DNA of 64,000 bases from Spirochaetia bacterium (GCA_965226055.1 CBDDCA010000006.1:893440-957439), one strand, 5' to 3'. Counted from the first letter of the stretch, positions 1,223 through 54,980 are shown. A program made the numbers and translations. The notes: a model not told the origin generated them from the letters alone.

Positions 1223-1366
1223 AATTCCTCCTAATTACTGTAATGTTCTTATATACAGTATACAATTATTTTGTAATTTGTAGAAACACTAAAATACTAT
1301 TTTTTGTATAATAAGAGATTATGTATATGTATAAAGAGGCAATATAATGAAAGTAAGGAGTTTTAT

Positions 1367-17765: not shown

Positions 17766-17776
17766 CAGATAAAAAA

Positions 17777-17850
17777 TGGAGATAAAGGGATTCGAACCCT
17801 TGACCCCTAGAATGCAAATCTAGTGCTCTAGCCAGCTGAGCTATATCCCC
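17777..17850 (-). tRNA. tRNA-Ala(TGC)
   Basis: Reverse complement GGGGATATAGCTCAGCTGGCTAGAGC...CTAGA-TT-TGC-AT-TCTAG...GGTTCGAATCC...TATCTCCA; G3:U70 pair present. Confidence 0.96.
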
Positions 17851-18100
17851 ATGTAATATACAGTGTATCATCAAGTAAAAAAAAATGCAAGTGTGGGTAT
17901 ACGGTATTTGGAAATTCAAGCATTAAGTGCGATAAAGTAGTAATATAAGACAGCGTTCTCTGTTTTTTTTTGTTTCATGTGATTTTTTGTTCTTATTTCT
18001 ATGGTAAAATTCCAAATTTTCCAAGAAATTAAATTGCATTAATAAGTAATTTCATGGTATACTATTACTAATAAAATTAAATTATAAATGGTAGGTATTT

Positions 18101-33119: not shown

Positions 33120-34221
33120 CTATGCTTTCTCAACTATACTTTCTAAGTATGCTTCTATAAAATGGTCTATTTCTCCATCCATAACTTTTTGTGTATCACT
33201 TGTCTCTCTATTTGTTCGGTGATCTTTTACTAAATTATATGGATGAAACACATACGAACGTATTTGGCTTCCCCATGAAATATTTAATTTTTTAGGAGAT
33301 AGAGCATTTCTTTCTTCTTGTTTTTTTTGTTCATAATGATCAAATAGTCTGCTTCGTAGAATTTTGAGTGCAGTTTGTTTATTTTTAATTTGTGAGCGTT
33401 CATTTTGACATTGTACAACAATTCCTGTTTCAATATGAGTAATGCGCACAGCAGAATCTGTTTTGTTCACATGCTGTCCTCCTGCTCCACTGGAGCGATA
33501 TGTGTCCACTCTTATTTCTTCTGGTTTTATTTCAATAGTAGTGGTATCGTTGAGTATCGGAAGGGCATGTACAGACGCAAAGGTGGTATGTCTACGATTG
33601 CTACTATCAAAAGGAGAGAGACGTACTAAGCGGTGTATTCCTGTTTCTGCTTTTAGCTGTCCGTACGCATATTCTCCTTTAATTTCTAATAACACAGACT
33701 TTATTCCTCCTTCTGAAGGTTGAATATCAAGCTCTTTTACGCTAAATTGTTTCTTTTCGCACCATCGAATATAAAGGCGATATAATAGTTTTACCCAATC
33801 GCAAGACTCTGTTCCTCCTGCTCCCGTTTGAACACTCAGATATGAATTATTGATGTCTATTTCGTTGCTAAAAAATGTATAAATTTTTAGTTGCTGAAAA
33901 TCGTGAATAAGCTGTTCATATTCTTGTTGTATTTCGTTGCTATATTCATTACTATCGTCACTTTCTTTTGCAAGTTCACAGAGAGTCTCTAAATTTTCTG
34001 TATCCTGTAGAATTTTCTCCCATTGAGATACTGAGTTTTTGAGGCTGGTTATCTGTTTAAGCACTTGTGTTGCTTGAGCAATATTTTCCCAAAAAGTTGG
34101 ATTTTGACTTTCTTGTTCTAGGCTTGTAATGTGAGAATAGGTGTCTTGTAAGTCAAAGCCGCCTCCATTGAGTAGTAATATCTTGTTTTAGTGTTTCAAC
34201 TTGTTTTATTAATTCTTCCAT
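33120..34221 (-). CDS. prfB: Peptide chain release factor 2 (programmed +1 frameshift)
   Basis: SPF and GGQ motifs; the upstream ORF from ATG 34221 (MEELIKQ...WRRL) ends at CTT-TGA-C. Confidence 0.96.
34152..34166 (-). promoter_or_regulatory. prfB +1 frameshift site
   Basis: GGAGG-CGG-CTT-TGA-C: internal SD followed by the canonical CUU UGA shift site. Confidence 0.93.
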
Positions 34222-36407: not shown

Positions 36408-36448
36408 TTGACAGTATTTTTTCTTTACTGTATACTTACATTAAGTAT
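36408..36448 (+). promoter_or_regulatory. Sigma70-type promoter with overlapping palindrome (candidate operator)
   Basis: TTGACA-17bp-TATACT; inverted repeat ATACTTA-CAT-TAAGTAT (36432-36448) overlaps the -10 box. Confidence 0.65.
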
Positions 36449-36462
36449 TTTTATTAAAAAAA

Positions 36463-37620
36463 ATGGATAGAAACAAAATTAAATATGGTATCATTGGTTC
36501 TGGAATGATGGGAAGGGAGCATATACAAAATATTGGCCTATTAGATACGGCTACAGTTGTTGCTATATCAGAACCCGATACAGAACAGCAGTCTATTACT
36601 CATGCTATCGTTCCTCATGCTACAATATATTCTCATCATAGAGATATGATGAAAGATACAAATATTGATGTATTTGTTATAGCATCTCCTAACTATACTC
36701 ATGCTAATATTTTATTGGATATTTGCAAAACAGATACTCGTCCTATTTTAGTAGAAAAGCCGTTGTGTACTACCATTGATTGTTGTAAAAAGATATTGGA
36801 TATAACAGCAGAGTATTCTGCTCCTATTTGGGTAGCTATGGAATATAGATATATGGAAGCAATTTCTCTTCTTATAAAAAAGGGAAAACAAGGCCTTATA
36901 GGAGAAAAAAAAATGGTATCAATAAGGGAGCATAGATTTCCTTTTTTGAAGAAGGTGGGAGATTGGAATAGATTTAATAAAAACACAGGAGGAACACTTG
37001 TAGAGAAATGCTGTCATTTCTTTGATCTTATGCGAGTGCTTATGGAAGATGAGGTTGTACGAGTGTACGCAAGCGGTGCGAAAGATGTGAATTTTTTAGA
37101 TGAGGAGTATCAGGGGCAAATTCCAGACATAATAGATAATGCATATGTAGTACTTGAGTTTCAATCAGGAAAAAGAGCTATGCTGGATTTATGTATGTTT
37201 TGTGGTGGTTCTTACTATCAAGAATATATAGCAATATTAGGCGATAAGGGAAAGTTAGAATGTAAGATTCCAGGTCCAGATAGATTATGGGCAGTAGATG
37301 ATATAAATGAACTAGGACATTCCACTGGATTTGATGGAGAACATAGAAATTCTGAGCTTGTATTTAGTCCGAGAAGTCCAAAAGGACCTGTTCATCAAGA
37401 AATAAAAGCAAATAAAACATTACGATGTGTAGGTGATCATCTAGGCTCTACTTTTTATCAGCATCAAAAGTTTAATGCTGTAGTACAAGGAGAAGGAGAT
37501 GTGGAAGTGAGTATAGAGGATGGAGTGAAATCAGTAATAATCGGGCTTATTGCAGAGAAATCTATCAGGGATCATCAAGTAATAGAGATGGGAGATATAT
37601 ATAATACCATAATAGGATAA
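36463..37620 (+). CDS. Gfo/Idh/MocA-fold protein, likely NAD+-dependent sulfoquinovosidase (GH188/SqgA-like)
   Basis: YGIIGSGMMGREH, LVEKPLCT, MEYRYM, IREHRFPFLKKVGDWNRF..NTGGTLVEKCCHFFDLM; sulfoglycolytic gene context. Confidence 0.75.
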   Translation: MDRNKIKYGIIGSGMMGREHIQNIGLLDTATVVAISEPDTEQQSITHAIVPHATIYSHHRDMMKDTNIDVFVIASPNYTHANILLDICKTDTRPILVEKPLCTTIDCCKKILDITAEYSAPIWVAMEYRYMEAISLLIKKGKQGLIGEKKMVSIREHRFPFLKKVGDWNRFNKNTGGTLVEKCCHFFDLMRVLMEDEVVRVYASGAKDVNFLDEEYQGQIPDIIDNAYVVLEFQSGKRAMLDLCMFCGGSYYQEYIAILGDKGKLECKIPGPDRLWAVDDINELGHSTGFDGEHRNSELVFSPRSPKGPVHQEIKANKTLRCVGDHLGSTFYQHQKFNAVVQGEGDVEVSIEDGVKSVIIGLIAEKSIRDHQVIEMGDIYNTIIG

Positions 37621-37652
37621 AGTAATTATAAAAATATTATAGGAGGTAAGAT

Positions 37653-38822
37653 ATGAAAAAATATTTTTATGTGATGGTATCAATAGCTCTATTGGTATCA
37701 ATAGTATTTATGAGTTGTGAAAGAGGCACAAAAGAGGCTTCTAAAATGGATGACAGCATGTCTATGAAAGATGATAAGGACAATATGTCATCAGAGATGG
37801 ATATTGATTATAATGCTCTTCCAGAAAATGTTGAGTTCACTATAGTGGCAGCAATCAATACAGGATTAGATAGCTATAACTTTAAGGCTCTTATGTTGCT
37901 TAAGAATTTTATTGAAAATGCTTCTAATGGGAGATTAGGGTTGCAAGTGTATCCAAATGGTCAGATAGCTGCAACGGTAGATGATGGATATAGGGGATTG
38001 CGGGATGGTACTATTGATATTTTTCAAGTAACAGGAGATGCCGCAAGATATTGGCCTCCAATTTCTGTATTTGATATTCCGTATATGCTTGCTGATGATA
38101 GAATTGCAGAAGCAGTACTTACTGACACTGCATTTATTGAAACATTACGAAATGGACAACTTGCTAAAAATCCTAAAATACGATTGATGATGATCACTAA
38201 TAGTGGTGGTTGGAGAAATTTTGCTACAGTAAAGAAACAAATAAAAACTCCTTCTGATGTACAGGGAGTAAAATTAAGGACAGTAGCAAGTAAAGTGCAG
38301 CAAGAGCTAGTAAAGTTGCTAGGAGGAGTTCCTACCAGTATTGCGTGGCCTGAGGTGTATACATCGTTGTCTACAGGGGTAGTTGACGGGACAAAAAATG
38401 GCGTAGTTGATATTATGACAGTTAAGTTTGATGATGTACTAAACTATATCACTCTTGATGGGCATGCGTATATGGCAGGATTTTGGATGTTTAGTCAAAC
38501 AAAATATGATATGCTTCCTGATGATTTACAGGTGGTACTCAATGATGGGTTTAGTGCTATGCAACAGTATTTATTTTCATATCCAAAGTATCAGAGTATT
38601 GAAGCATTTCGACGCTTTCGTGCTCGTGGCATAGAAATATACAAGCCTACTCCTGATGAAATCAAGGAATTTCAAAAAGAGACACAGCCAATTCAAGATT
38701 GGTTTGTAAATGAATACGCAAAGGATCATCCAGAAATACAAGAATATCTTGATTTATACAAAGCAACGATAGCAAAACAGACTGCCATGGTTGAAGCTAC
38801 CAGAAACAGAGAGAAAAATTAG
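37653..38822 (+). CDS. TRAP transporter substrate-binding lipoprotein (DctP family)
   Basis: Lipobox FMS-C; GVKLRT, WPEVYTSLSTGVVDG. Confidence 0.88.
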   Translation: MKKYFYVMVSIALLVSIVFMSCERGTKEASKMDDSMSMKDDKDNMSSEMDIDYNALPENVEFTIVAAINTGLDSYNFKALMLLKNFIENASNGRLGLQVYPNGQIAATVDDGYRGLRDGTIDIFQVTGDAARYWPPISVFDIPYMLADDRIAEAVLTDTAFIETLRNGQLAKNPKIRLMMITNSGGWRNFATVKKQIKTPSDVQGVKLRTVASKVQQELVKLLGGVPTSIAWPEVYTSLSTGVVDGTKNGVVDIMTVKFDDVLNYITLDGHAYMAGFWMFSQTKYDMLPDDLQVVLNDGFSAMQQYLFSYPKYQSIEAFRRFRARGIEIYKPTPDEIKEFQKETQPIQDWFVNEYAKDHPEIQEYLDLYKATIAKQTAMVEATRNREKN

Positions 38823-38859
38823 AGATACAAAAGAGAGATTTGTCAAAAGAGGTATTAGT

Positions 38860-39450
38860 ATGAAAGAGACGCGTGTGATATTTGTGATATATACTTTTTT
38901 ATGTAACATAAACTATTTTATTGCGAAATTGTTATCAAGAATCGCGTCTCTCCTTATTATTGCCATGAGTATTATTATTTTTGCACAGGTAGTGATGAGG
39001 TATATGTTTAGTCGCCCTTTTGAGTGGGCAGAAGAATTGACAATATATATGATGGTATATATGATGTTAATTTGTATTCCATACCTGGTTATTATGAATA
39101 AAAATATCGCTATGACAATCTTTTATGAAAAAATTGCAGGGACACGACTTGGGTTTCTTTTTGATGTAGTGATACATGTATCGTTTCTCACTATTATCAT
39201 TTTGTGGCTTCCTCTTGGAATACGGTTGTTTGTTGATAGTAGAGAAATACTTGCAGCCCAGATGCCAATAACAAGAGATTGGCTTTATTCCAGCGTTCCT
39301 ATAAGTTTTGTAATTACTCTTGTTATTTGTCTGCAAAAAATCATGAGAAGTGTTGTGTGTCTTATACGGGTAGATATGCATGCTTCCTTTCTTGCCATTG
39401 AGAAGCGATTTGAACAATCTGAAACGGCAATATATGAGATAACAACATAA
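38860..39450 (+). CDS. TRAP transporter small permease (DctQ)
   Basis: QVVMRYMFSRPFEWAEEL; four TM helices. Confidence 0.88.
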   Translation: MKETRVIFVIYTFLCNINYFIAKLLSRIASLLIIAMSIIIFAQVVMRYMFSRPFEWAEELTIYMMVYMMLICIPYLVIMNKNIAMTIFYEKIAGTRLGFLFDVVIHVSFLTIIILWLPLGIRLFVDSREILAAQMPITRDWLYSSVPISFVITLVICLQKIMRSVVCLIRVDMHASFLAIEKRFEQSETAIYEITT

Positions 39451-39461
39451 GGAGAATTTTC

Positions 39462-40751
39462 ATGACTATAGTGTTTTTTGTAGTATTTTTTGCTCTCATG
39501 CTTTTGGGGGTACCAGTATTTTATTCTTTGCTTATGGCTCCTATTTTTGAAGTGCTTTTATCAGGAGAAATGCGATTTATTTCGTTACTTTTTAATAAAT
39601 TTATTGGTTCTGTTGAAAGTTTTCCATTACTTGCATTACCTTTTTTTATTTTTGCTGGTGCTATTATGGGAAGAGGAGGAATAATCAAAGGCATTGTAGA
39701 TTTTTCTCAATCAATGATTGGTCATAAAAAAGGAGGCTTAGGGCATGTAGTAATAATGTCTTCAACTCTTTTTTCAAGTTTGACAGGATCAGCAGTGGCG
39801 GCAACCTCAGCTATTGGAAAAATGTTAATTCCTGAAATGGAAAGAAAAGGCTATCCGAGAGTATACGCTTCTGCAATAACCGCTGCATCAACAGTGTTGG
39901 GTCCTATTATTCCTCCGAGTGGAATAATGATTATTTATGCTCTTGTTATGAACGAGTCTATTGCTAATATGTTTATAGCAGGGATAGTTCCTGGAGTATT
40001 AATTTCACTGGGACTGATGATCATTAATTTTTTGATATGCGAAAAGAAAGGCTATGATTATCGTGTGCCAAAATCTACAACAAAAGAGCGGTTTGTAGCA
40101 TTTTTGAAAGCACTTCCTTCTCTGTTAGCTCCTATCATAATATTAGGAGGTATTTATGGAGGAATTTTTACTCCTACAGAAGCTGCTGCAGTTGCGGTAA
40201 TTTATGCCTTAGTGTTGTGTTTGTTTGTACTAAAGACCTTAAAATTAAAAGATATATTTATTATTGGGCTTGAATCTTGTGTTTCTTCTGCGGCAATATT
40301 AGTACTGGTGGGAGCAGCAAGTAGTTTCGCTGCTATTGTAGGACTATCACCCTTATCAAAGTACATTGCTATTGTTACGTCCTCTATTACCAGTAATCCT
40401 TATGTCTTATTTTTCATCATCAATATAATATTACTTATTATTGGTATGTTTATGGATGCTGGACCAGCAATACTTATTTTTGCTCCAATTCTTGCTACCC
40501 CGCTCTTACGCTTAGGCATAGACCCTCTTCATTTTGGAGTAGTAATGAGTATTATTGTTACCTTAGGATTAGCAACACCTCCTATGGGACTTGTATTGTT
40601 TGTTGCATCGGATATATCAAAAATATCCTTAGAAAAGATAGCTTTAGAAGCCTTGCCATTTTTGATATTAGAAATAGTGATGGTATTTTTGTTTACTTTC
40701 TTTCCTATTCTTATACTAGGGTTGCCTCGATTATTAGGAATGATACAGTAA
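39462..40751 (+). CDS. TRAP transporter large permease (DctM)
   Basis: PLLALPFFIFAG, TGSAVA, IIPPSG, GIFTPTEAA, TPPMG. Confidence 0.93.
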   Translation: MTIVFFVVFFALMLLGVPVFYSLLMAPIFEVLLSGEMRFISLLFNKFIGSVESFPLLALPFFIFAGAIMGRGGIIKGIVDFSQSMIGHKKGGLGHVVIMSSTLFSSLTGSAVAATSAIGKMLIPEMERKGYPRVYASAITAASTVLGPIIPPSGIMIIYALVMNESIANMFIAGIVPGVLISLGLMIINFLICEKKGYDYRVPKSTTKERFVAFLKALPSLLAPIIILGGIYGGIFTPTEAAAVAVIYALVLCLFVLKTLKLKDIFIIGLESCVSSAAILVLVGAASSFAAIVGLSPLSKYIAIVTSSITSNPYVLFFIINIILLIIGMFMDAGPAILIFAPILATPLLRLGIDPLHFGVVMSIIVTLGLATPPMGLVLFVASDISKISLEKIALEALPFLILEIVMVFLFTFFPILILGLPRLLGMIQ

Positions 40752-40813
40752 TGTAAGTAATATAATAGTAGTAGAAATCAAATTTTAAAAATCAAAACAT
40801 AGGAGTAAAAAAT

Positions 40814-41572
40814 ATGATAAAAGAAGGAAAAAAATTTCATAGGGAGTATGCAACATGTGAATTAAAAGAGATTTTTAATCAATCTAATTCTAATTTAGAT
40901 TTTTTAAGTCTTGCAGAATTACATATTGAACATACTCGATCAATGACCTTAAGTTATAAACAAGAGGAATGTTTAATTTTTAATATAGGATCTCCCGTTC
41001 ATTGTGTAGTGGAAGGAAAGAAATATATATTAGATACGCGTGATGTATTGTATGTGCCGATTGATACTGTGTTTTATGTTGAACATAAAGATAAGAAAGA
41101 GAAAGGATTATTATACATATATAGGGCGGTAGGTGATGAAAAGTACACGGTATTTCATTCGAAATGGAAAAAGATGAAATTAGACAAAAATCGCTTACGT
41201 GTATTACATCGAAAAGACGTATTCTTGATGTTTGATGTTTCTGAAAAAGCCAATAAGTTTATGGCAGGGTATACATTCTATCAAGACAGAACAAGAGCAT
41301 GGCCACCGCATAATCATCGTGATCAAGAAGAATGCTATAGTTTTATTGAAGGAAGTGGGGCAATGCAAGTATATGAAGATGATGAGCATATGTCGTTTGT
41401 GAAATCTGTAAAGGTAGGCGATCATATTACTATTCCATTGTTGAACTATCATCCTGTGTTTAGTCATGAAGAGCCTCTATGTTTTATCTGGTGTATTGCA
41501 GGAGAAAGATATTGGGTAGGAGATAAAAGTAAAGATTTTATGAAAGGAAAAGGAGCTAGCATTACTACATAA
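40814..41572 (+). CDS. IolB/KduI-like cupin isomerase (candidate sulfoquinovose isomerase)
   Basis: WPPHNHRDQEECYSF and YHPV metal-binding motifs typical of IolB/KduI bicupins. Confidence 0.75.
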   Translation: MIKEGKKFHREYATCELKEIFNQSNSNLDFLSLAELHIEHTRSMTLSYKQEECLIFNIGSPVHCVVEGKKYILDTRDVLYVPIDTVFYVEHKDKKEKGLLYIYRAVGDEKYTVFHSKWKKMKLDKNRLRVLHRKDVFLMFDVSEKANKFMAGYTFYQDRTRAWPPHNHRDQEECYSFIEGSGAMQVYEDDEHMSFVKSVKVGDHITIPLLNYHPVFSHEEPLCFIWCIAGERYWVGDKSKDFMKGKGASITT

Positions 41573-41649
41573 AAACTATGTTGGTAGTGTATACTATAAC
41601 AAAAAAATATATCAATACATGACACTATAAGATATAAAGGAGGAATATA

Positions 41650-42324
41650 ATGAAATATTTTTTAGATAGTGCAAAATTAGATGAGATTGATGAAGCATTT
41701 CATACATTTGGAATAGATGGGGTGACTACTAATCCTAATCATGTTAAAGTGAGTGGTAAAACGCATAAACAAATTATTGATGATTTGTCAGCATGGGCAA
41801 AAAAGAATGCTCCCTCTAGTTTTCCTATTTCTATTGAAATAAATCCTCACTTAAACAAGGCTGAGGATATGTTACAGGAAGCACATGCTATTGCAAAAAT
41901 ATCGGAGTATTTTGTCATAAAGTTACCATGTACTCATGCAGGGTTATTGGCAGCAAGGCAACTTGAAGAGCAGAAAATTAGAACAAATATTACGCTTGTT
42001 TTTTCTCCTTCACAGGCTTTGGCTGCAGCAAAAGTAAACGCTTCGTTTGTATCGCCTTTTCTGGGATGGAAAGAAAATAGCGGGGAAGATTGTACAGAAT
42101 ATCTTTCGACTATTCGTGTTATACTCAATAACTTTGATACATTATCTAAAACAGAAGTGATTACTGCAGCAATAAGAAATGGTAAGCAGATTGCTGATGC
42201 TGCCGCTATTGGTCTTGATATTGTCACCTGTGGTTTAGCTGTGTATAAAGAAAGTTTTTATCATCCTTTTACTGATTTTGGATTAAAGAAATTTCAGGAT
42301 GCTTGGGATGCTACTGCAAAGTAA
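41650..42324 (+). CDS. Transaldolase, sulfofructose transaldolase (SqvA/SftT)-like
   Basis: MKYFLDSA, DGVTTNP, FPISIEINPHL, FVIKLPCT, FVSPFLGWKENSG, AAIRNGKQ, YKESFYHPFTDFGL; GW replaces the GR of ordinary transaldolases. Confidence 0.8.
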   Translation: MKYFLDSAKLDEIDEAFHTFGIDGVTTNPNHVKVSGKTHKQIIDDLSAWAKKNAPSSFPISIEINPHLNKAEDMLQEAHAIAKISEYFVIKLPCTHAGLLAARQLEEQKIRTNITLVFSPSQALAAAKVNASFVSPFLGWKENSGEDCTEYLSTIRVILNNFDTLSKTEVITAAIRNGKQIADAAAIGLDIVTCGLAVYKESFYHPFTDFGLKKFQDAWDATAK

Positions 42325-42327
42325 AAC

Positions 42328-42966
42328 ATGAAACAAGTACATGTAGATACTGCAATGGCTGTTGATGATATATCGTTTCATCGTTATGGTAGGCAGATAT
42401 TTGATATTAATGTTGACGAATCAATACATATAGTCTCTTCATTATCGTTACCGCAAGAAGGCAATGAATATACTCCGTCCTTTGCTCGTCTGGAAGATAC
42501 TCAAGAATATCTCTCTATTAAAAAGTATGTGTTTGGTGATGTTGATATACAGGCAGGGTTTTGTAATGGATGGAATAATCGTCTCAATGCCTTAGAGTTT
42601 CATAAAAGCTCAGAAGTGATTATTGCAGTATCTTCGTTTGTTCTTATTCTTGGTGTGCCAGAATATATGCAAGAAGACAATACCTATGATACTGCTCATG
42701 TCGAGTGTTTCCTTGTTCCTCAAGGGGCAGTAGTAGAGTTGTATCCTAAGGTGTTGCATTTTGCTCCATGTAAAATACATGATGATGGATTTCGGAGTGT
42801 TATTATATTGCCTCGTGGAACAAACACTGTACTTTCAGATTCTCTTGTGGCATCGTATCTTTTTAGAAAAAATAAATGGTTGCTTGCACATGAGGATGCA
42901 CATTGGTTATGTAATCAGGGTGCAGTACCATTATTACGTGGTGAAAATATAGAGATTATATCTTAG
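42328..42966 (+). CDS. DUF4867 family protein (SftX/SqvB-like)
   Basis: IQAGFCNGWNNRLNALEFHKSSE, VELYPKVLHFAPC, LPRGTN, NKWLLAH. Confidence 0.85.
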   Translation: MKQVHVDTAMAVDDISFHRYGRQIFDINVDESIHIVSSLSLPQEGNEYTPSFARLEDTQEYLSIKKYVFGDVDIQAGFCNGWNNRLNALEFHKSSEVIIAVSSFVLILGVPEYMQEDNTYDTAHVECFLVPQGAVVELYPKVLHFAPCKIHDDGFRSVIILPRGTNTVLSDSLVASYLFRKNKWLLAHEDAHWLCNQGAVPLLRGENIEIIS

Positions 42967-42977
42967 GGAATTTTTGG

Positions 42978-43733
42978 ATGGATCTGTATACACTATTGTT
43001 AATGGCTCTTATAGTACTATTTTCTTATACTATAGGCACTATTGCGGGGTTTGGTCCTACTATTTTGGCGTTACCTTTGATGTTATTTCTGCATGAACTC
43101 TCTTTTGTTCGTCCACTGCTTACTTTGCTGGGGATGTTGCTTGCGTGGGTTGTATGTGCATCTATGTATACACATATACATAAAAGAATATTTTTTGTTA
43201 TACTAGGAGTAATGGGAGCAGGGCTTCCTATAGGTATTTTTCTGTACTCTTACTTAAATAAGGATGTTTTGCTTGTAATAGTAGGGATATTTACCTTGTT
43301 TGTATCGGTAAAAGGGCTTATTGATACCTCTTTCTCTACGAAAGAGATGTATTTACCTCATTGGGTGTTATATATGGCGTTATTCTTTGCAGGAATAGTA
43401 CATGGAGCTTTTTCTACAGGTGGACCGTTGCTGATAATATATAGCTCTCAAATGATAAAAGATAAAACAAAATTTAGAGCCACACAAGTTGCAATATGGA
43501 GTATACTAAATTTAGTACTGGTATTACAGTTATTTGTATTTGTTCCTCATGGTGCTTTTAAGCCAGGATGGGATGAGTATAAAATATATGTATTGATGTT
43601 GCCAGTATTGTTGATAGCTATAGTGTTGGGTAAATATCTTGAAAAAAGAGTTTCCCAATTATTATTTAGGAGATTAATATATGCACTTCTATTTGTTAGT
43701 GCATGTAGTATTTTAATTATGAGTGTGTTTTAA
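42978..43733 (+). CDS. TauE/SafE sulfite/organosulfonate exporter
   Basis: GTIAGFG..ILALP, AGIVHGAFSTGGPL, KFRAT; multi-TM. Confidence 0.85.
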   Translation: MDLYTLLLMALIVLFSYTIGTIAGFGPTILALPLMLFLHELSFVRPLLTLLGMLLAWVVCASMYTHIHKRIFFVILGVMGAGLPIGIFLYSYLNKDVLLVIVGIFTLFVSVKGLIDTSFSTKEMYLPHWVLYMALFFAGIVHGAFSTGGPLLIIYSSQMIKDKTKFRATQVAIWSILNLVLVLQLFVFVPHGAFKPGWDEYKIYVLMLPVLLIAIVLGKYLEKRVSQLLFRRLIYALLFVSACSILIMSVF

Positions 43734-43734
43734 T

Positions 43735-44934
43735 ATGGATGTGAATTTTAATAATACAGAACGAAGAATTCTTCGTGAGATATTTAAGAATTCAGAAATA
43801 TCACAAATAGATATTTCTAATACTTTAAATGTTACTAGTGCTGCTATATCGCAGTATACTAATAAACTTATTCAGCAGAATATTGTTCAGCAGAAAGGAA
43901 ATATTCCTACTCGTGCTGTAGGGAGAAATAAGGTCATACTGGGGCTAAATGCAAGTTTTGGATATGTAGTAGGGATAGCTTTTGAGTTTGATCATATTGA
44001 GTTTACTATAGCTAATTGTGTAGGAGAAAGCCTTACTCATAAAGTTGAGCATGGCGTGCTAAGTACAATAAAAGAGCCATGGCTAAAAAAGCTCCCTGAT
44101 CTGTTTAAGAGTGAAATAAAAAAATTAAAATTATTTCCATCCCAAATAGTAGGGGTTGGGATAACTTCTCCAGGAACAGAATTACAGGGATCTGGACATC
44201 ATACGGAACTGAATATTATTAATGAACTTGCAAAGCAAGCACAGCAGTATTTTGAACATGAATATAGTTATACGGTAGTACATGGGAATAATGTGCATAG
44301 TATTGCATGTGCAGAATATATGCTAAATGAGTTTGATGATAATTTTATCTGTGTGAAATATGGACCAAGAATAGGTATTTCTTTTTGGATAAATGGTAAG
44401 CTCTTTAAGGGTTCTCATGGATTTGCAGGAGAGATAGGGCATATGCAGTTACCTATTGATGCAATGTATGACATAACGTGTGATGTGTGTGGTAAAAAAG
44501 GATGTTTGGAGTCAATGATATCAGAACGTTATATACGAAAGATAATAAAAAGTATTCCAAACTACAAAAAAACATTTTCATATTTATTTGAAGATGGTGT
44601 ATCAATAGATGGATTAAAGGTACACACTGTATTTAAGTATGCACATAAACACGAGAAACTTAGCAACATTATGGATCATACAATCAAGTGTATTGGAACA
44701 ATACTTTCTATTGTTGAGAAGATAATAGATTCAAAACGTATTATTTTATTTGGAAAAAGTTTTTTAGAAGACTCTTTTTATCAATCAGTATATGATACAA
44801 TTATTGAGATGTGTAAACCTATTTCAGATATCACTATAGTAAAAGCAAAAGTAGAACCACATTACAAAGTAATAGGGGCAGTGTTTCTTATCCTTATGAA
44901 AGTGTTTTATATAGAACAAGAGATAGATATTTAA
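43735..44934 (+). CDS. ROK family transcriptional regulator
   Basis: N-terminal wHTH, GFAGEIGHM, CDVCGKKGCLE Zn motif. Confidence 0.9.
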   Translation: MDVNFNNTERRILREIFKNSEISQIDISNTLNVTSAAISQYTNKLIQQNIVQQKGNIPTRAVGRNKVILGLNASFGYVVGIAFEFDHIEFTIANCVGESLTHKVEHGVLSTIKEPWLKKLPDLFKSEIKKLKLFPSQIVGVGITSPGTELQGSGHHTELNIINELAKQAQQYFEHEYSYTVVHGNNVHSIACAEYMLNEFDDNFICVKYGPRIGISFWINGKLFKGSHGFAGEIGHMQLPIDAMYDITCDVCGKKGCLESMISERYIRKIIKSIPNYKKTFSYLFEDGVSIDGLKVHTVFKYAHKHEKLSNIMDHTIKCIGTILSIVEKIIDSKRIILFGKSFLEDSFYQSVYDTIIEMCKPISDITIVKAKVEPHYKVIGAVFLILMKVFYIEQEIDI

Positions 44935-44963
44935 TAATTTGTGTTGTAATGTGCCCCATACCC

Positions 44964-44992
44964 TTGACATACTTTCTTTAATGGTGTATTAT
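44964..44992 (+). promoter_or_regulatory. Sigma70-type promoter for the second TRAP operon
   Basis: TTGACA-17bp-TATTAT upstream of an AGGAGG RBS. Confidence 0.6.
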
Positions 44993-45051
44993 TTAATTAT
45001 GTGATTTAATTATAAATTATTTTAATTGTATAGTATATAAGGAGGTATGGT

Positions 45052-46128
45052 ATGAAGAAGTATTTTTTCATTTCATTGTTATTTTTGTTGTTTTTTACAA
45101 CTGTATTGAGTATTATTGGTTGTGGTAAGCAAAAGCAGTCTTCACAATCAGGTGCTTCCTCGCGAGGTACAAGTGAGGCAGTTGATAGTATGTCTCAGAT
45201 TACTATTAAATTAAGTCATCCGTCTGGTGCTGTTGCAGGGGATCCAATACATGAAGCGGCAATGCTCATGCAGACATTGCTTGAAGAAAAAAGTAATGGT
45301 GTCATTAAGGTACAGGTATATCCCGGTGGACAGCTAGGATCAGAATCAAGAAATGTACAGGATGTACAAAGTGGTATTGTAGAGATGGCTATGATTACTG
45401 CTGGTAATATGATATCATATTCACCTTCATTTGGGGTATTAGATTTTCCATATCTTTTTCAATCAAGAGAAGAAGCATGGAAAGCTATAGATGCAATAAA
45501 AGAAACGTTTACCACATTGCAAGTGAGAGAAAGTGGTACAAGGACAATAGCATGGTTAGAACAAGGGTTTCGTAATATTACTAATTCTAAAAAGGCAATA
45601 ACATCGCTTAATGATTTACAAGGGCTAAAGATACGTGTGCCTAACAATAAATTTGTTATTGCTGCGTTTAAGTCATGGGATATTAACCCTGTTCCTATTG
45701 CATGGGATGAAGTATTTTCAAGTTTACAACAAGGGGTTGTTGATGGCCAAGAGAATCCATATGTTAGTATTTATGTACATAAAATGTATGAGATGCAAAA
45801 ATATGTTACAGATATACACTATAAAATATGGGTAGGTGTTTTTATTGTAAATGAAGATTGGTTTCAAAATCTTTCTGTTGATGTACAAAGGGTAATTTTA
45901 CAAGCAGGGGAGGAAGTTACTCAATTTAATAGAGATATGATAGTCGAAGTAGAGAATGAAACAAGACAGAAACTGATTGATAATGGAATGATACTTTCTG
46001 GGACACCAAGTGATGAACAAGAATGGGCAAGAAGAGCGATGAGTGTATGGCCTCAATTTTATGATGCGCTTCCTGACATAACAGTGTTAGATGATGTAAT
46101 GTCTGCACTAGGAAGACAAAGACCATAA
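45052..46128 (+). CDS. TRAP transporter substrate-binding lipoprotein (DctP family)
   Basis: Lipobox IIG-C; YPGGQLG, GFRNIT, GLKIRVP, LQQGVVDGQENP. Confidence 0.92.
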   Translation: MKKYFFISLLFLLFFTTVLSIIGCGKQKQSSQSGASSRGTSEAVDSMSQITIKLSHPSGAVAGDPIHEAAMLMQTLLEEKSNGVIKVQVYPGGQLGSESRNVQDVQSGIVEMAMITAGNMISYSPSFGVLDFPYLFQSREEAWKAIDAIKETFTTLQVRESGTRTIAWLEQGFRNITNSKKAITSLNDLQGLKIRVPNNKFVIAAFKSWDINPVPIAWDEVFSSLQQGVVDGQENPYVSIYVHKMYEMQKYVTDIHYKIWVGVFIVNEDWFQNLSVDVQRVILQAGEEVTQFNRDMIVEVENETRQKLIDNGMILSGTPSDEQEWARRAMSVWPQFYDALPDITVLDDVMSALGRQRP

Positions 46129-46129
46129 T

Positions 46130-46600
46130 ATGTATAAAAAAATACTTACCAAGATTGACTCAATAGAAGAGCTTATTGCAAGTATTTGTATTTTTATCAT
46201 TCCTAGTATACTGTTTGTTCAGCTGGTATTGCGTTCTTTTAATATAGGGTTTGCTTGGTTTGAAGAGGTGCTACGATTTAGCTTTTTGCTATTAGTATAT
46301 TCTGCAAGTGTTATAGGAGTAAAAAAAGATTCTCATTTTTCATTGACTTTTTTTGTTGATAGGGTATCGGTGAAAGTACAAAAATACCTTGCGATACTAA
46401 AATATGGCATATGGTTTTTATTGAATGGTATTATTGTATATCAATCTATACTGTACATACAAACATTATTTGTTCGTCCACAGACCTCTCCAGTATTGGA
46501 AATTAATATGGCATGGATATACGCTATTATTCCTATTATGTTTATATTACAGACGATTAGAATGATTCAGCTTATTATCAGAAAAATAAGAGGAACATGA
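46130..46600 (+). CDS. TRAP transporter small permease (DctQ)
   Basis: QLVLR..WFEEVLR; four TM helices. Confidence 0.85.
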   Translation: MYKKILTKIDSIEELIASICIFIIPSILFVQLVLRSFNIGFAWFEEVLRFSFLLLVYSASVIGVKKDSHFSLTFFVDRVSVKVQKYLAILKYGIWFLLNGIIVYQSILYIQTLFVRPQTSPVLEINMAWIYAIIPIMFILQTIRMIQLIIRKIRGT

Positions 46601-46601
46601 A

Positions 46602-47879
46602 ATGGATAATATAATATGGCTTTTATTGTTTTTGTTATTACTACTAGGAGTTCCTATTTGGGTATCGTTAGGAATGGCTACTGTTACTTTTTTGTTTATG
46701 ACAGGGACTCCTCTTTCTATTATTCCTATTGATATAAGTAAAGTGTCAGATCTGTATCCATTGCTTGCAATACCTTCGTTTGTGTTTGCGGGTTGTATTA
46801 TGGAGCAAGGAGGAATAGCAAAGCAAATTGTTGAAGTAGCACATCTTATTGTAGGGAAAGTCAAAGGAGGCTTAGCAATAGTTACCATTATTGGCTGTAT
46901 GTTTTTTGCTGCAATGATTGGCTCAGGTCCAGGAACTGTTGCCGCAATGGGATCTATTATGATACCAGCTATGGTACGACAAGGATATGGTAAGATATAT
47001 GCTTCTGGGGTAAGTGCTACTGGAGGTACTCTGGGAATATTGATTCCTCCAAGTAATCCTCTTATTATATATGGAGTGATGGCAAATGTTTCTGTAAGCT
47101 CTCTTTTTCTTGCAGGGTTTTTTCCTGGTTTGGTAGGAGGAATAATGCTTATTATGGTTGCTCTTGTTGTGGCAAAGAAACGTAACTTGCCTGTTGTTGA
47201 GAAAACATATACTGTGCAGGATGCTATGAGGATAATAAGGAAGAATTTTTTTTCTTTGCTGACTCCTTTTATTATTCTTGGAGGAATATACGGAGGTATT
47301 TTTACTCCAGTGGAAGCGTCTTCTGTAGCGGTGGTATATGCTCTATTGGTGGGAAAATTTATAAACAAAACACTTACATGGGAAGGGGTAAAAAAATCGC
47401 TTACTCTTACTTCTGTTACTTCAGGGACCTCTCATATTATTATAGGGGTATCTATTTTGTTTGGCAGATTCCTTACTATCAATCAGATACCACAGAATTT
47501 TGCAGCAACAATGCTTGCTGTCAGTACAAATCCAATTATAGTGCTGTTATTGATAGTACTGTTACTGTATTTTTTAGGAATGTTTATGGAAACCTTGTCA
47601 ACGATAGTTATCCTTGTTCCTATTCTTATGCCTGTGATACATCAGTTAGGAATTGATCCTATCTATTTTGGCATTTTATGGATTGTAACAAATCAAGTAG
47701 CTTTGATAAGTCCTCCATTAGGAGCTAATCTTTTTATTGCTATGAATTTATCAAATACAAGCCTAGAAGAAACTGCTTTTGGTACTCTTCCTTTTTTAGT
47801 AGGCTTAGTTATTTTTACGTTGCTTATATTGTTTGTTCCATCTATTTCCTTATTTTTACCGCAGTTATTTAGTAATTAG
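46602..47879 (+). CDS. TRAP transporter large permease (DctM)
   Basis: PLLAIPSF, LIPPSNP, GIFTPVEAS, SPPLGANLF. Confidence 0.93.
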   Translation: MDNIIWLLLFLLLLLGVPIWVSLGMATVTFLFMTGTPLSIIPIDISKVSDLYPLLAIPSFVFAGCIMEQGGIAKQIVEVAHLIVGKVKGGLAIVTIIGCMFFAAMIGSGPGTVAAMGSIMIPAMVRQGYGKIYASGVSATGGTLGILIPPSNPLIIYGVMANVSVSSLFLAGFFPGLVGGIMLIMVALVVAKKRNLPVVEKTYTVQDAMRIIRKNFFSLLTPFIILGGIYGGIFTPVEASSVAVVYALLVGKFINKTLTWEGVKKSLTLTSVTSGTSHIIIGVSILFGRFLTINQIPQNFAATMLAVSTNPIIVLLLIVLLLYFLGMFMETLSTIVILVPILMPVIHQLGIDPIYFGILWIVTNQVALISPPLGANLFIAMNLSNTSLEETAFGTLPFLVGLVIFTLLILFVPSISLFLPQLFSN

Positions 47880-47887
47880 GAGAATAT

Positions 47888-48892
47888 ATGAGAAGTGTAT
47901 TTATTGATACAATAGGGCATCTTGATGTACGTGATTCTGCCTATCCTCGTTTACAGAAAGGAAGCTCAATTATAAAAGTGGTGTATTCTGGCATATGTGG
48001 TTCAGATATACATGTATATCATGGAAAGCAACCTCGTGTACAGCCTCCTACACAATTTATTTTAGGGCATGAAGCGAGTGGTATTGTACATGAAACATAT
48101 AACAAAGAACTTCAAGTAGGAACTGCTGTTGCTCTATTTCCTTACAAGAGTTGTGGCACATGTGCCGTATGTCGTATAGGAAAACATCAGCTTTGTGTGC
48201 AAAGGGAGTTTTTAGGATTTCAAAGAGATGGTACTTTTGCAGACTATGTGTTAGTACCAGATGATGATATTTTTGTTCTTCCTTCGACTATGACAATAAG
48301 AGAAGGGGCTTTTGTCGAGCCGTTTGCGGTAGCTATTCATGCTATAGAGTTGAGTAACATACAAAAAAAGTCTTGTCTTATTGTTGGGGGAGGAACAATA
48401 GGCTTGTGTATTGGTATTGCTTTGAGAGAAGTGTATGGTATAAAAGAGGTGATATTTGTAGAGATAAATAAAAAAAGGGCTGAATGTATAACGGATCATC
48501 TATTTTCCTGTGTATCTGATATAAGCAATGAGTTGGGGGCTATTGATACGGTGTTTGAATGTTCTGGAAATGATAGTGTATTGAGATCTCTATTGGCAGT
48601 GGATCCTCCATTGCGAGAACTTATCATAGTAAGTACTTTTCCACGTGATAAGAGTATTCCTATTTTTGAAATGACAAAAAAAGAGATACTCTGTATTGGG
48701 AGTCAAGCGTATCAAAAACAAGATTTTAAGAAATCGCTGGAATGTATTGCGCATAGCGAGACTATTAAACATTTTTTGTCTGATATTGTAGAAACAAGGG
48801 AGTATTCTTTAGAAGAAGCTAATGGTGCTTTTCAAACTGCAGTATCTTTGCACAGTAAACCAAAGGTATTGTTTAAGGTTGCAGATATATAA
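47888..48892 (+). CDS. Zinc-dependent alcohol dehydrogenase (MDR family)
   Basis: GICGSD, LGHE, CGTCAVCRIGKHQLC, VEP, GGGTIG. Confidence 0.9.
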   Translation: MRSVFIDTIGHLDVRDSAYPRLQKGSSIIKVVYSGICGSDIHVYHGKQPRVQPPTQFILGHEASGIVHETYNKELQVGTAVALFPYKSCGTCAVCRIGKHQLCVQREFLGFQRDGTFADYVLVPDDDIFVLPSTMTIREGAFVEPFAVAIHAIELSNIQKKSCLIVGGGTIGLCIGIALREVYGIKEVIFVEINKKRAECITDHLFSCVSDISNELGAIDTVFECSGNDSVLRSLLAVDPPLRELIIVSTFPRDKSIPIFEMTKKEILCIGSQAYQKQDFKKSLECIAHSETIKHFLSDIVETREYSLEEANGAFQTAVSLHSKPKVLFKVADI

Positions 48893-48981: not shown

Positions 48982-50247
48982 ATGAGAAAATTAATGTTTC
49001 TGTTGGCAATGCTATGTATGGTCAGTTCTATTTCTTTATATGCAGGTGCTAATTCGGAGGATACTGGTAAAAAAGAAGTTGAAGTATTTCATTGGTGGAC
49101 ATCTGGGAGTGAAGCTGTTGCGTGGAAGTTATTGCAACAACAGCTTGCAGAAAAAGGGATAGCGTATGTGGACTTTCCTGTTGTGAGAGGAGAACAAGCA
49201 TTGAATGAACTTCGTGTGCGTGTGTCTGTAGGTAATCCTCCTACTGCTGCACAAATGCTTGGGTTTAGTATTCTTGATTGGGCAGAGCTTGGAGCGTCAG
49301 CTCAGCTTGATGATATTGCAAAAGAAGAGGGCTGGGATGAAATTATTCCTGAAGAAATTAAAAAATTCTCAAAGTATAAGGGGAAATGGGTTTCTGTTCC
49401 TGTAAATATACATTCTACAAATTGGTTGTGGATGAATAATAAGTTGCTGGATAAATTGAATATAGCTATTCCTACGACATGGGATGAGTATGTTACTGCA
49501 CTAGAGAGAGTAAAATCATCAGGAAAAATTGCTCTTGCACATGGTGGAGAGGCATGGCAAAATGCAACGCTTTTTGATGGAGTTGCATTAGCTACAGGAG
49601 GTCCATTTTTTTATAAAAAAGCATTGATTGATTTGGATATTACCGAAATTAACTCTGTTACTATGGAAGCGGTATTTGATAGAATGACAGTATTGCGTTC
49701 ATATGTAGATGATAATTTTCTTAACAGAAGCTGGGATAGTGCAACTGCTATGGTGATTAACGGAGAAGCAGCGTTTCAAATGATGGGAGATTGGGTAAAA
49801 GGAGAATTTCGCAAAGCTGGTATGTTGTCAGGAAATGATTTTATAGGGGTGAGAACTCCTAACACACAAGGATCAGTATTGTTTAGCTCAGATCAATTTT
49901 TTATGTTCAGAGTAGATCCCGAAAGAGAATTAGCTCAAAAAGAGCTTGTAAAGACTATGATGAATGCTAGTTTTCAAGAGCAGTTTAGTATGATAAAAGG
50001 GTCTGTTCCTGCGAGAACTGATATTATAGGGACGAGTATGGACTCTATTAGCCAAAAAGGTATTCAAGATGTTATCAGTGCAAGCAACAACGAGTCCTTT
50101 CTTGGGTCTATGGCTCATGGATATGCGGTTACTCCTGCTGTCCAAAATGCTATGTACGATGTCATTACAAGGCATTTTAATGGTGAATATAGTTCTTCAA
50201 AGCAAGCAGTACAAAAATTTATTCAGGCAATACAATCTGCATGGTAA
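48982..50247 (+). CDS. Sugar ABC transporter substrate-binding protein (glucose/mannose-binding type), orphan
   Basis: EVFHWWTSGSE, VPVNIHSTNWLW, LAHGGEAWQ, FQMMGDW; no adjacent permease. Confidence 0.85.
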   Translation: MRKLMFLLAMLCMVSSISLYAGANSEDTGKKEVEVFHWWTSGSEAVAWKLLQQQLAEKGIAYVDFPVVRGEQALNELRVRVSVGNPPTAAQMLGFSILDWAELGASAQLDDIAKEEGWDEIIPEEIKKFSKYKGKWVSVPVNIHSTNWLWMNNKLLDKLNIAIPTTWDEYVTALERVKSSGKIALAHGGEAWQNATLFDGVALATGGPFFYKKALIDLDITEINSVTMEAVFDRMTVLRSYVDDNFLNRSWDSATAMVINGEAAFQMMGDWVKGEFRKAGMLSGNDFIGVRTPNTQGSVLFSSDQFFMFRVDPERELAQKELVKTMMNASFQEQFSMIKGSVPARTDIIGTSMDSISQKGIQDVISASNNESFLGSMAHGYAVTPAVQNAMYDVITRHFNGEYSSSKQAVQKFIQAIQSAW

Positions 50248-54779: not shown

Positions 54780-54869
54780 ACTTATTTATCTGTAAGCGGC
54801 ATATCTCTATTGTAGCATTATTAGTATATATTGCTATAGTGCATGTATATTTTTTTGTATTTCATCGCA

Positions 54870-54883
54870 TTTTTTTTTTTTTT
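54870..54883 (+). repeat. T14 homopolymer upstream of the third lipoprotein gene
   Basis: 14 consecutive T in the divergent murD/lipoprotein intergenic region. Confidence 0.85.
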
Positions 54884-54980
54884 AATTTATAGAGATAACA
54901 CAAAAAATAGTATTTGTACTATAATGATGCTTAGGTGTAATGATAATTATACAATAATAGATACCAACAAGGAGATCATT

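Follow-up and report, generated by a model that had tools for sequence, protein, structure and literature searches.

A sulfofructose-transaldolase-type gene cluster for sulfoquinovose catabolism in a Spirochaetia bacterium, built from partly non-canonical parts with a cupin as proposed isomerase

Sulfoquinovose (SQ) is an abundant plant sulfosugar, with a production of about 10 billion tonnes a year. We analysed 64,000 nucleotides of DNA from a Spirochaetia bacterium (GCA_965226055.1 CBDDCA010000006.1:893440-957439), hereafter the window, in which 13 co-oriented genes fill positions 36463 to 48892 and which the initial annotation had read as a variant SQ cluster of the sulfofructose-transaldolase (sulfo-TAL) type. 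All of the genes that it had named were recovered where it had placed them, on the plus strand and in matching families. In order, they encode a Gfo/Idh/MocA protein (SqgA), the DctP, DctQ and DctM subunits of a transporter of the tripartite ATP-independent periplasmic (TRAP) type (TRAP-1), a KduI/IolB-like cupin, a transaldolase (TAL), a DUF4867 protein, a TauE/SafE-family protein, a ROK regulator, a second TRAP set (TRAP-2) and a Zn-dependent dehydrogenase (Zn-ADH). The whole analysis is based on sequence, predicted fold and gene neighbourhood. The host genome has 2.25 Mb in 6 contigs and is 89% complete, and the window is the final 64 kb of contig C6. Spacers range from -32 to 77 nt within 36463-44934, where the ROK gene and tauE overlap by 11 nt; a 117-nt gap follows, and spacers of 1 to 8 nt join the genes within 45052-48892. 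The whole 14-gene order is repeated in another Spirochaetia metagenome-assembled genome (MAG; locus L001), with proteins 95-100% identical, and the core is repeated in a second Spirochaetia MAG (locus L002), with proteins 47-74% identical and in the order DctP-DctQ-SqgA-DctM-cupin-TAL-TauE, sqgA being inserted between dctQ and dctM. Because the order recurs in L001 and the core in L002, the arrangement is not a chance juxtaposition.

The first gene (36463..37620) encodes a protein of 385 amino acids matched by PF01408, PF02894 and PF22725, with a Rossmann GSGMMG motif starting at residue 12. Its best matches in the PDB are solved SqgA structures, namely, 8zn9 (8.7e-110), deposited alongside a marine sulfoquinovosidase study, ArSqgA 8qc3 (1.1e-109) and FlSqgA 8qc2 (1.8e-105), and the next match falls to 1.7e-21. 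The similarity with ArSqgA and FlSqgA (JACS 2023) runs over the full length, and nothing at the sequence level sets the window protein apart from them. In the available part of that paper, the SQ contacts of ArSqgA are Lys107, Tyr136, Arg166, Leu170, Lys172, Glu189, His193 and His321, and Arg166, Lys172 and the Leu170 backbone form the sulfonate triad. All eight are identical in the window protein, as K99, Y128, R158, L162, K164, E181, H185 and H326, respectively, when read by eye from printed HMMER alignments, which is also how residue conservation was assessed for DUF4867 and for the TRAP-2 receptor below. With matches to solved SqgA of 1e-105 to 1e-110 and every reported SQ contact kept, the sequence bears out the earlier proposal of a sulfoquinovosidase of glycoside hydrolase family 188 (GH188): the Gfo/Idh/MocA protein is a GH188 SqgA, predicted to cleave SQ glycosides in an NAD+-dependent manner.

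The transaldolase (41650..42324, TAL_FSA family) matches the sulfofructose transaldolase (SF-TAL) BmSF-TAL (8bc3) at 1.3e-80 and 273 bits, versus 2.2e-43 and 151 bits for the best ordinary Tal. A tree agrees, in that the window and L002 transaldolases form a pair nested within the canonical-cluster clade, to which the Agathobacter (Eubacterium) rectalis enzyme belongs, and the wider SF-TAL-like group splits from other Tal copies at 100/100. Moreover, transaldolase scores across a sample of 400 Spirochaetota genomes, from which all the Spirochaetota counts below are drawn, are bimodal, at 237 bits or more or at 146 bits or less. These comparisons point to an SF-transaldolase rather than a housekeeping Tal/Fsa, as had been suggested, although it is the sole Tal/Fsa homologue of the 89%-complete genome. 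Its K91, in the motif VIKLP, aligns with the Lys of the VIKIP motif of BmSF-TAL, the putative catalytic residue that forms the Schiff base. The DUF4867 protein (42328..42966; PF16161, 216 bits), of the SftX/SqvB type and a putative accessory component, matches SqvB (PDB 9gyy) at 9.7e-50 and keeps the metal ligands H99/E103/H150 as H92/E96/H144; the match of about 1e-49 and the retained ligands sustain the SqvB-type assignment made earlier. The L002 cluster has no DUF4867 gene. Next come the TauE/SafE-family protein (42978..43733; Pfam TauE, 74 bits), a proposed C3-sulfonate exporter, and the ROK regulator (43723..44934), which combines Pfam ROK with an N-terminal winged helix-turn-helix domain (HTH_24); ROK genes also lie beside many cupin loci. 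At the sequence level, the identities of SqgA, SF-TAL, DUF4867 and TauE are established.

As a canonical reference, we used 79 non-self loci with a 58-63% identical SF-transaldolase, mostly from Clostridia and including E. rectale and one Treponemataceae MAG. In loci outside those annotated with Pfam, neighbours were labelled by blastp with seed proteins, so that divergent genes may escape. The SftI isomerase is present in 76 of these loci, a GH31 glycosidase in 70, a YihU-like reductase in 78, DUF4867 in 55, TauE in 65 and ROK in 49; the reliance of canonical clusters on GH31 and SftI, as described in the initial annotation, is therefore confirmed. The cupin, SqgA and TRAP genes were each found in none of the 79. 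The sulfo-TAL pathway known from Bacillus aryabhattai, B. megaterium and Eubacterium rectale employs SftT/SqvA, SftI/SqvD, SftX/SqvB, SftE, the GH31 enzyme SftG and a reductase of 3-sulfolactaldehyde (SLA). With these clusters, the window shares the SF-TAL clade, at 59-63% identity, DUF4867, TauE and ROK, as well as the relative order TAL-DUF4867-...-TauE-ROK. However, it is without the canonical GH31, SftI and YihU-type SLA reductase and has SqgA, the cupin and TRAP uptake instead, with an HpsK-like TRAP and the Zn-ADH appended. Altogether, the window retains TAL, DUF4867, TauE and ROK, while the glycosidase, isomerase, transporter and SLA reductase are exchanged.

A search of the genome for the canonical enzymes detected no YihQ-type GH31 and no SftI. 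The single GH31 protein (809 amino acids) was rejected as a sulfoquinovosidase, being alpha-glucosidase-like (238 bits) and scoring only 96 bits against YihQ. A profile of 76 SftI sequences had no match among the genome open reading frames (ORFs) at E<=10, and blastp gave none at 1e-4. Since the E. rectale SftI itself reaches only 34 bits on PF02952, an ORF of 542 amino acids scoring 27-29.5 bits on that family was tested further, and it was discarded as SftI with neither a blastp match nor a match to the SftI profile; it adjoins a sulfate-binding protein gene. For SLA reduction, the closest YihU-type candidate that the genome offers has 25% identity and is L-threonate dehydrogenase-like, and it was likewise rejected.

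The gene upstream of the transaldolase encodes the cupin (40814..41572), a bicupin of 252 amino acids that we propose as the SQ isomerase. It passes the PF04962 KduI/IolB family (35.9 bits; cut-off, 23.9) and reaches neither of the NCBIfam equivalogs KduI (33.4 bits; cut-off, 250) and IolB (25.4 bits; cut-off, 205). Its AlphaFold2 model (pLDDT, 88.7) is closest in fold to KduI (TM score, 0.69) and to an IolB-like protein (TM score, 0.70), at about 15% identity, and it differs in fold from SftI/SqvD, which is of the PF02952 type. The bicupin fold (TM scores of 0.63-0.70) and the HxH...E...H metal motif are thus common to the window cupin and KduI/IolB, whereas its identity to the solved structures is low and it belongs to a separate, compact family. 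This family numbers 1,189 homologues in 90% clusters, and only 24 representative clusters among 1.84 billion match the cupin at E<=1e-30. The metal motif (H166, H168, E172/E173 and H213) is invariant in 21 aligned members. Other invariant residues are R104, R127, R129, K134, R161, R232 and K238, some of which may bind the sulfonate. KduI and IolB are both aldose-ketose isomerases of anionic six-carbon sugars, and this is the chemistry required for SQ.

Gene neighbourhoods argue in the same direction. We examined the best 80 of 103 cupin relatives from species-representative genomes, of which L001-L052 and L060 are nearly all spirochaete loci and the rest mainly come from Acidobacteriota, Planctomycetota, Verrucomicrobiota and Bacteroidota. 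A set of the sulfo-transketolase (sulfo-TK) type, defined by RpiB, CoA-ligase subunits, a split transketolase and an acylating, SauS-like aldehyde dehydrogenase (531 bits), lies within 6 kb of the cupin in 30 of the 80 loci. A transaldolase stands there in another 16, usually accompanied by an aldehyde dehydrogenase and by a major facilitator superfamily (MFS) or TauE transporter; 8 have the aldehyde dehydrogenase alone, several of them on short contigs, and 26 have none of these. In total, 46 of the 80 loci, from at least five phyla, have genes for a split transketolase or a transaldolase beside the cupin. SftI occurs in none of the 80 cupin loci, and across both locus sets (80 cupin and 79 SF-TAL loci) the cupin and SftI never share a locus. 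A genome-wide search at E<=1e-8 found no homologue of SftI in 13 of 19 cupin-cluster genomes. The cupin tree groups the window with L001 and L002 (SH-aLRT support, 98) and places this clade as sister (93) to one of 20 members; 19 of those lie in sulfo-TK clusters, and in the remaining locus the downstream sequence amounts to just 225 nt. Spirochaete clusters of the sulfo-TK variant (SqwGH, SqwI, SqwD and SqwKL) are headed by a cupin of the same subfamily; downstream of sulfofructose, they use a transketolase and the window a transaldolase. Sulfo-TK clusters have been reported for Spirochaetes (also in the available part of a review), Firmicutes and Tenericutes. In the Bacteroidota operon L069, the cupin comes first (cupin-symporter-TK-TK-RpiB-SDR-TauE, where TK is transketolase and SDR is short-chain dehydrogenase/reductase), and the RpiB-type isomerase would cover the second, C4 isomerisation, thus leaving the SQ-to-sulfofructose step for the cupin.

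Given this complementarity with SftI, the sulfoglycolysis neighbours, the tree and the KduI/IolB-type fold and motif, we consider the cupin a probable non-orthologous replacement for SftI/YihS and predict that it is an SQ isomerase; the comparative genomics thus speaks for the replacement that the initial annotation had put forward, and probably for an unrecognised third kind of SQ isomerase spread over at least five phyla. Nevertheless, several observations weigh against it. Within 6 kb, 26 of 80 cupin loci have no sulfoglycolysis gene, and 11 of these cupins, all from spirochaetes (L006, L012-L016, L025, L032, L034, L038 and L050), make up a non-SQ clade of their own with a fixed context (PGM-UPF0047-cNMP-binding histidine kinase-(SDR)-cupin-GH36/SNF symporter/U32 peptidase), so that the family is not exclusively linked to SQ clusters. 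Some SftI-like gene is present elsewhere in 6 of the 19 cupin-cluster genomes. Among the transaldolases encoded next to a cupin, those of Acidobacteriota cluster with ordinary Tal copies rather than with SF-TAL; those of Planctomycetota and Verrucomicrobiota are sister to SF-TAL. One protein of the AGE/YihS superfamily (PF07221, 178 bits), encoded 58 kb upstream, could in principle isomerise SQ. Moreover, the cupin tree is a quick one with SH-aLRT support only. A split transketolase subunit resembling SqwG is encoded elsewhere in each of the 14 tested genomes whose cupin lacks a sulfoglycolysis context, with an identity of at least 50% in 13, which we take as suggestive only.

Some of the cupin loci show further features beside the cupin operon. 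L069 is flanked by two PF06439 3-keto-disaccharide-hydrolase genes and by a Gfo/Idh/MocA gene of 461 codons (L069:7856-8614 and L069:16324-18542), which may provide oxidative 3-keto cleavage of SQ glycosides, a further alternative to GH31 and GH188. In an acidobacterial locus (L059:7068-9884), a gene of the altronate/galactarate-dehydratase family and a LarA-like gene precede cupin-MFS-TAL-aldehyde dehydrogenase; the former presumably resembles the sulfolactate sulfo-lyase family. In L066, a PALP protein and a 2-hydroxyacid dehydrogenase were considered as CuyA and sulfolactate dehydrogenase and rejected, as they score as threonine synthase and phosphoglycerate dehydrogenase.

TRAP-1 lies between sqgA and the cupin gene and comprises DctP1 (37653..38822; Pfam DctP, 188 bits), a proposed receptor for SQ or SQ-glycerol, DctQ (38791..39450; Pfam DctQ, 77 bits over residues 59-188), which probably starts further downstream than the TTG listed, and DctM (39462..40751; Pfam DctM, 346 bits). 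Of the 400 Spirochaetota genomes, 6 encode DctP1 homologues, at 44-49% identity, all of them no more than about 150 nt away from an SF-TAL gene, and the L002 cluster holds a copy 47% identical; the DctM is 57-60% identical to those of six other spirochaete sulfo-TAL clusters. Because all six homologues adjoin SF-TAL, we regard TRAP-1 as a type dedicated to sulfo-TAL clusters. These relatives (L319-L324, from genomes G294, G153, G233, G302, G220 and G210) are otherwise canonical, with SftI, GH31 and a YihU-like reductase, and are arranged as DctQ-DctM-TauE-YihU-SftI-GH31-?-SFTAL-DctP; an unlabelled stretch of about 1.1 kb separates GH31 from the transaldolase. In Roseobacter and Marinomonas, it has been proposed that TRAP transporters encoded next to SqgA or SQ genes import SQ or SQ-glycerol. 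The linkage to SF-TAL in turn supports the importer role suggested for TRAP-1 in the initial annotation, and from comparative genomics we propose it as a candidate SQ/SQ-glycerol importer.

We consider it likely that the region encodes a pathway of SQ catabolism of the sulfofructose-transaldolase type from partly non-canonical parts, with the cupin as isomerase. In this model, TRAP-1 would import SQ-glycerol and/or SQ, and SqgA would free SQ from its glycoside. The cupin would convert SQ, an aldose, into 6-deoxy-6-sulfofructose via a metal-bound ene-diol, as in KduI/IolB, and so replace SftI/SqvD. The SF-transaldolase would then transfer C1-C3 to glyceraldehyde-3-phosphate, giving fructose-6-phosphate, which would enter glycolysis, and SLA. 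SLA would be turned into a C3 sulfonate, most simply through reduction to 2,3-dihydroxypropane-1-sulfonate (DHPS) by the Zn-ADH, and TauE would export this product. The ROK protein would regulate the cluster, and DUF4867 would act as an accessory.

Two other readings bear on this assignment. One is a sulfo-TAL cluster whose SQ isomerase would be either DUF4867 or the AGE/YihS-family protein encoded at a distance, with the cupin acting, for example, in anomer or ring opening, in C2 epimerisation or on another sulfosugar; this appears unlikely to us. The genome does encode the PF07221 protein, DUF4867 is a metal cupin whose sulfofructose-soaked crystals show unmodelled ligand density at the metal in the available part of a JBC 2025 paper, and one clade of the cupin family stands outside SQ clusters. 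However, the AGE-family gene, 58 kb off, sits among mevalonate-pathway and surface-protein genes, and L002 keeps the cupin in a cluster without DUF4867. Canonical loci carry DUF4867 (55/79) alongside SftI (76/79), and DUF4867 is therefore no SftI replacement; the mutual exclusion of cupin and SftI also speaks against this reading, as does the published assay in which SftX had no mutarotase activity, according to the accessible text of the same paper. Even less credible, and in our view very improbable, is an ordinary inositol, uronate or pentose cluster, in which dicarboxylate TRAPs would accompany IolB/KduI, a dehydrogenase of the IolG kind and a housekeeping transaldolase. Automatic annotation would lead to this reading: source databases call the cupin homologues 5-deoxy-glucuronate isomerase or 5-keto-4-deoxyuronate isomerase (KduI), iolG is the top NCBIfam match of the dehydrogenase, the genome holds no Tal other than this transaldolase and a ribulokinase gene lies upstream. 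Yet iolG reaches 125 bits against a cut-off of 355, and IolB/KduI reach 25-33 bits against cut-offs of 205-250; because these models stay so far below their cut-offs, the inositol/uronate reading fails. Moreover, the dehydrogenase retains the Arg and Lys that bind the sulfonate and is about 290 bits nearer to SqgA than to any inositol dehydrogenase, SF-TAL outscores ordinary Tal by about 120 bits as a match of the transaldolase, and DUF4867 and TauE are present. Neither kduD nor any iol gene, iolC, iolD, iolE and iolJ included, was seen in the window, nor did any appear among the neighbours annotated with Pfam in the cupin loci sampled.

After the 117-nt gap, a second unit comprises the TRAP-2 solute-binding subunit DctP2 (45052..46128), DctQ (46130..46600; Pfam DctQ, 82 bits), DctM (46602..47879; Pfam DctM, 343 bits) and the Zn-ADH (47888..48892), a medium-chain dehydrogenase with Pfam ADH_N and ADH_zinc_N domains that exceeds no NCBIfam cut-off and has its best PDB match at 124 bits. 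DctP2 matches PDB 4pfr at 254 bits and 24gg/24gh, the HpsK of Bilophila, at 232 bits; HpsK is its closest relative among structures of named proteins. The residues of BwHpsK that hold S-DHPS are H42, E74, N95, R152, R173, W196, N213 and W238 (Chem Sci 2026). In the 24gg alignment, seven of these eight positions are identical in DctP2, the eighth, a His, lying beyond the printed PDB alignment and being matched by H67 only provisionally, from a family alignment. DctP2 has an HpsK-like pocket and is predicted to be a receptor for a DHPS-type sulfonate. HpsKLM of Bilophila wadsworthia is a DHPS TRAP, and TRAP-2 shares at least seven of its eight ligand residues but adjoins a Zn-ADH; the DHPS-degrading systems HpsGH/HpfGH and HpsNOP are not linked to it.

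The affinities of this unit lie outside the phylum. The nearest relatives of DctP2, at 51-58% identity, are from Peptococcaceae and Desulfotomaculum-type Firmicutes, and no relative above 34% identity was found in the 400 Spirochaetota genomes; a locus scan that used the single protein DctP2 recovered the near-identical genome alone. The sister genome G002 has neither DctP2 nor the Zn-ADH. A Peptococcaceae MAG (L194) presents the same DctP-DctQ-DctM-ZnADH order, with DctM 62% and Zn-ADH 39% identical, followed by a class II aldolase, a kinase resembling pyrophosphate-dependent phosphofructokinase and an FGGY kinase; related TRAPs lie beside split transketolases in three other phyla. Four such loci (L194:6979-16297, L252:5904-16136, L195 and L197, from MAGs of Peptococcaceae, Bacillota, Chloroflexi and Desulfovibrionaceae) bring together an HpsK-like TRAP with a Zn-ADH, a class II aldolase, phosphofructokinase (PFK)-type kinases or split transketolases, and hold no recognisable SQ isomerase or glycosidase. 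We propose that this second transcription unit, which the initial annotation had listed without interpreting it, is a laterally related, add-on sulfonate module, akin to those of sulfonate-respiring anaerobes, which would handle DHPS or a close relative.

As a guess, the Zn-ADH is a candidate SLA/DHPS oxidoreductase, which might work in one direction or the other. No YihU-type enzyme being present, SLA reduction is its simplest role, one that we hold only tentatively; the conserved association with an importer of the DHPS type suggests, instead, that it oxidises a sulfonate brought in from outside, a role for which we would go slightly further, though still short of even odds. Two points here count against the SQ pathway as we draw it: the Zn-ADH has no orthologue in G002 and is therefore not a universal step, and a DHPS importer beside a pathway expected to excrete DHPS has no explanation. 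In a corresponding alternative, to which we give somewhat less than even weight, TRAP-2 and the Zn-ADH stand outside SQ catabolism as an independent entry route, the Zn-ADH oxidising imported DHPS or a longer sulfonated polyol, and SLA is handled by an enzyme encoded elsewhere, e.g., an aldehyde dehydrogenase resembling succinate-semialdehyde dehydrogenase (SSADH), giving sulfolactate. The TRAP-ZnADH pair recurs as a unit in L194 and beside other sulfoglycolysis-type enzymes in L252, L195 and L197; it is set off here by 117 nt with its own promoter-like site, it is missing from G002, and the closest relatives of TRAP-2 are outside Spirochaetota, all of which suits such an independent route. 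The genome also encodes an SSADH-like aldehyde dehydrogenase (C6:686650) that is 40-43% identical to TAL-linked ones, but this gene has no SQ neighbours, and no desulfonating enzyme was found, the 89%-complete genome encoding no glycyl radical enzyme like pyruvate formate-lyase. A bolder hypothesis, which we think rather improbable, is that the HpsK-like TRAP and the Zn-ADH form a portable front end, by which DHPS or a longer sulfonated polyol would be taken up, oxidised to an aldehyde or ketose and passed on to the sulfoglycolytic cleavage enzyme of the host, i.e., the transaldolase here, the class II aldolase with PFK in the Peptococcaceae MAG and the split transketolase in Bacillota, Chloroflexi and Desulfovibrionaceae. 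If true, reduced sulfonates would be substrates of sulfoglycolysis enzymes and not only their end products.

With regard to novelty, the initial annotation had suggested a new architecture for sulfoglycolysis, in a lineage for which it knew of no description, and both points call for correction. For the architecture, the cupin as isomerase appears new; the available parts of the literature already report SqgA in sulfofructose transaldolase (sulfo-SFT) clusters without GH31 (JACS 2023), as well as TRAPs adjacent to SqgA. Spirochaete entries for SqgA and DUF4867 are likewise present in published supplementary lists, and a Sphaerochaetaceae MAG carrying YihQ and SqgA together is described in the accessible part of an ISME J 2026 paper. 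As to the lineage, SF-TAL-type genes occur in 14 of the 400 other Spirochaetota genomes, 12 of them with an SftI homologue (on the same contig as the transaldolase in 7), and none of the 14 has the cupin; a review table, as far as it is available, lists sulfo-TAL only for Firmicutes, Thermotogae and Chloroflexi. What is new is thus a candidate third family of SQ isomerases, the pathway itself being known. In targeted literature searches and in the papers covered, which are an incomplete set and in part available only as excerpts, no KduI/IolB-type cupin was linked to SQ isomerisation; a supplementary table of JBC 2025 lists PF04962 18 times among the Pfam families of DUF4867 neighbourhoods, with no discussion found in the available main text.

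Surveys of SQ degraders, in the portions available, score completeness by the two known isomerases, YihS and SftI/SqvD. Should the cupin family constitute a third one, it would follow that sulfo-TK clusters found in many spirochaetes, along with clusters of the transaldolase type from Bacteroidota, Acidobacteriota, Verrucomicrobiota and Planctomycetota, are now scored as incomplete or annotated as inositol/uronate genes. Sulfo-TAL would then be a mosaic pathway, with independent exchange of the steps for glycoside cleavage, isomerisation, transport and aldehyde handling, and the cupin reading yields a directly testable enzyme.

Upstream of sqgA, a weak promoter-like site (TTGACA-17-TATACT, 36408..36436, plus strand) lies 27 nt 5' of the gene. 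Of the three best promoter-like matches in the region (11/12 positions), two fall in gaps, before sqgA and before the second dctP, while the total number of promoter-like matches in the region is at chance level (71 versus 67.5 +/- 8.5). Directly 3' of the Zn-ADH gene, an orphan gene for an ABC-type sugar-binding protein (48982-50247) is kept in L001; it has no adjoining permease genes, and its product shows no similarity to the solute-binding proteins of other SQ loci at E<=1e-8. The genome encodes at least 10 DctP paralogues. A HisD-like ORF at the end of the window was considered as HpsN and rejected, since it passes the hisD model. Elsewhere in the window, three giant predicted surface proteins of 1,625-2,520 amino acids (1304-6820, 7742-15304 and 54843-59720) combine DUF285 repeats with fn3 or He_PIG domains, and the GC content falls to 0.255 at 16001-18000. 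The prfB ORF (33120-34064, minus strand) begins at position 47 of the RF2 model, a layout that is, judging from the sequence, the one expected for the usual programmed +1 frameshift.

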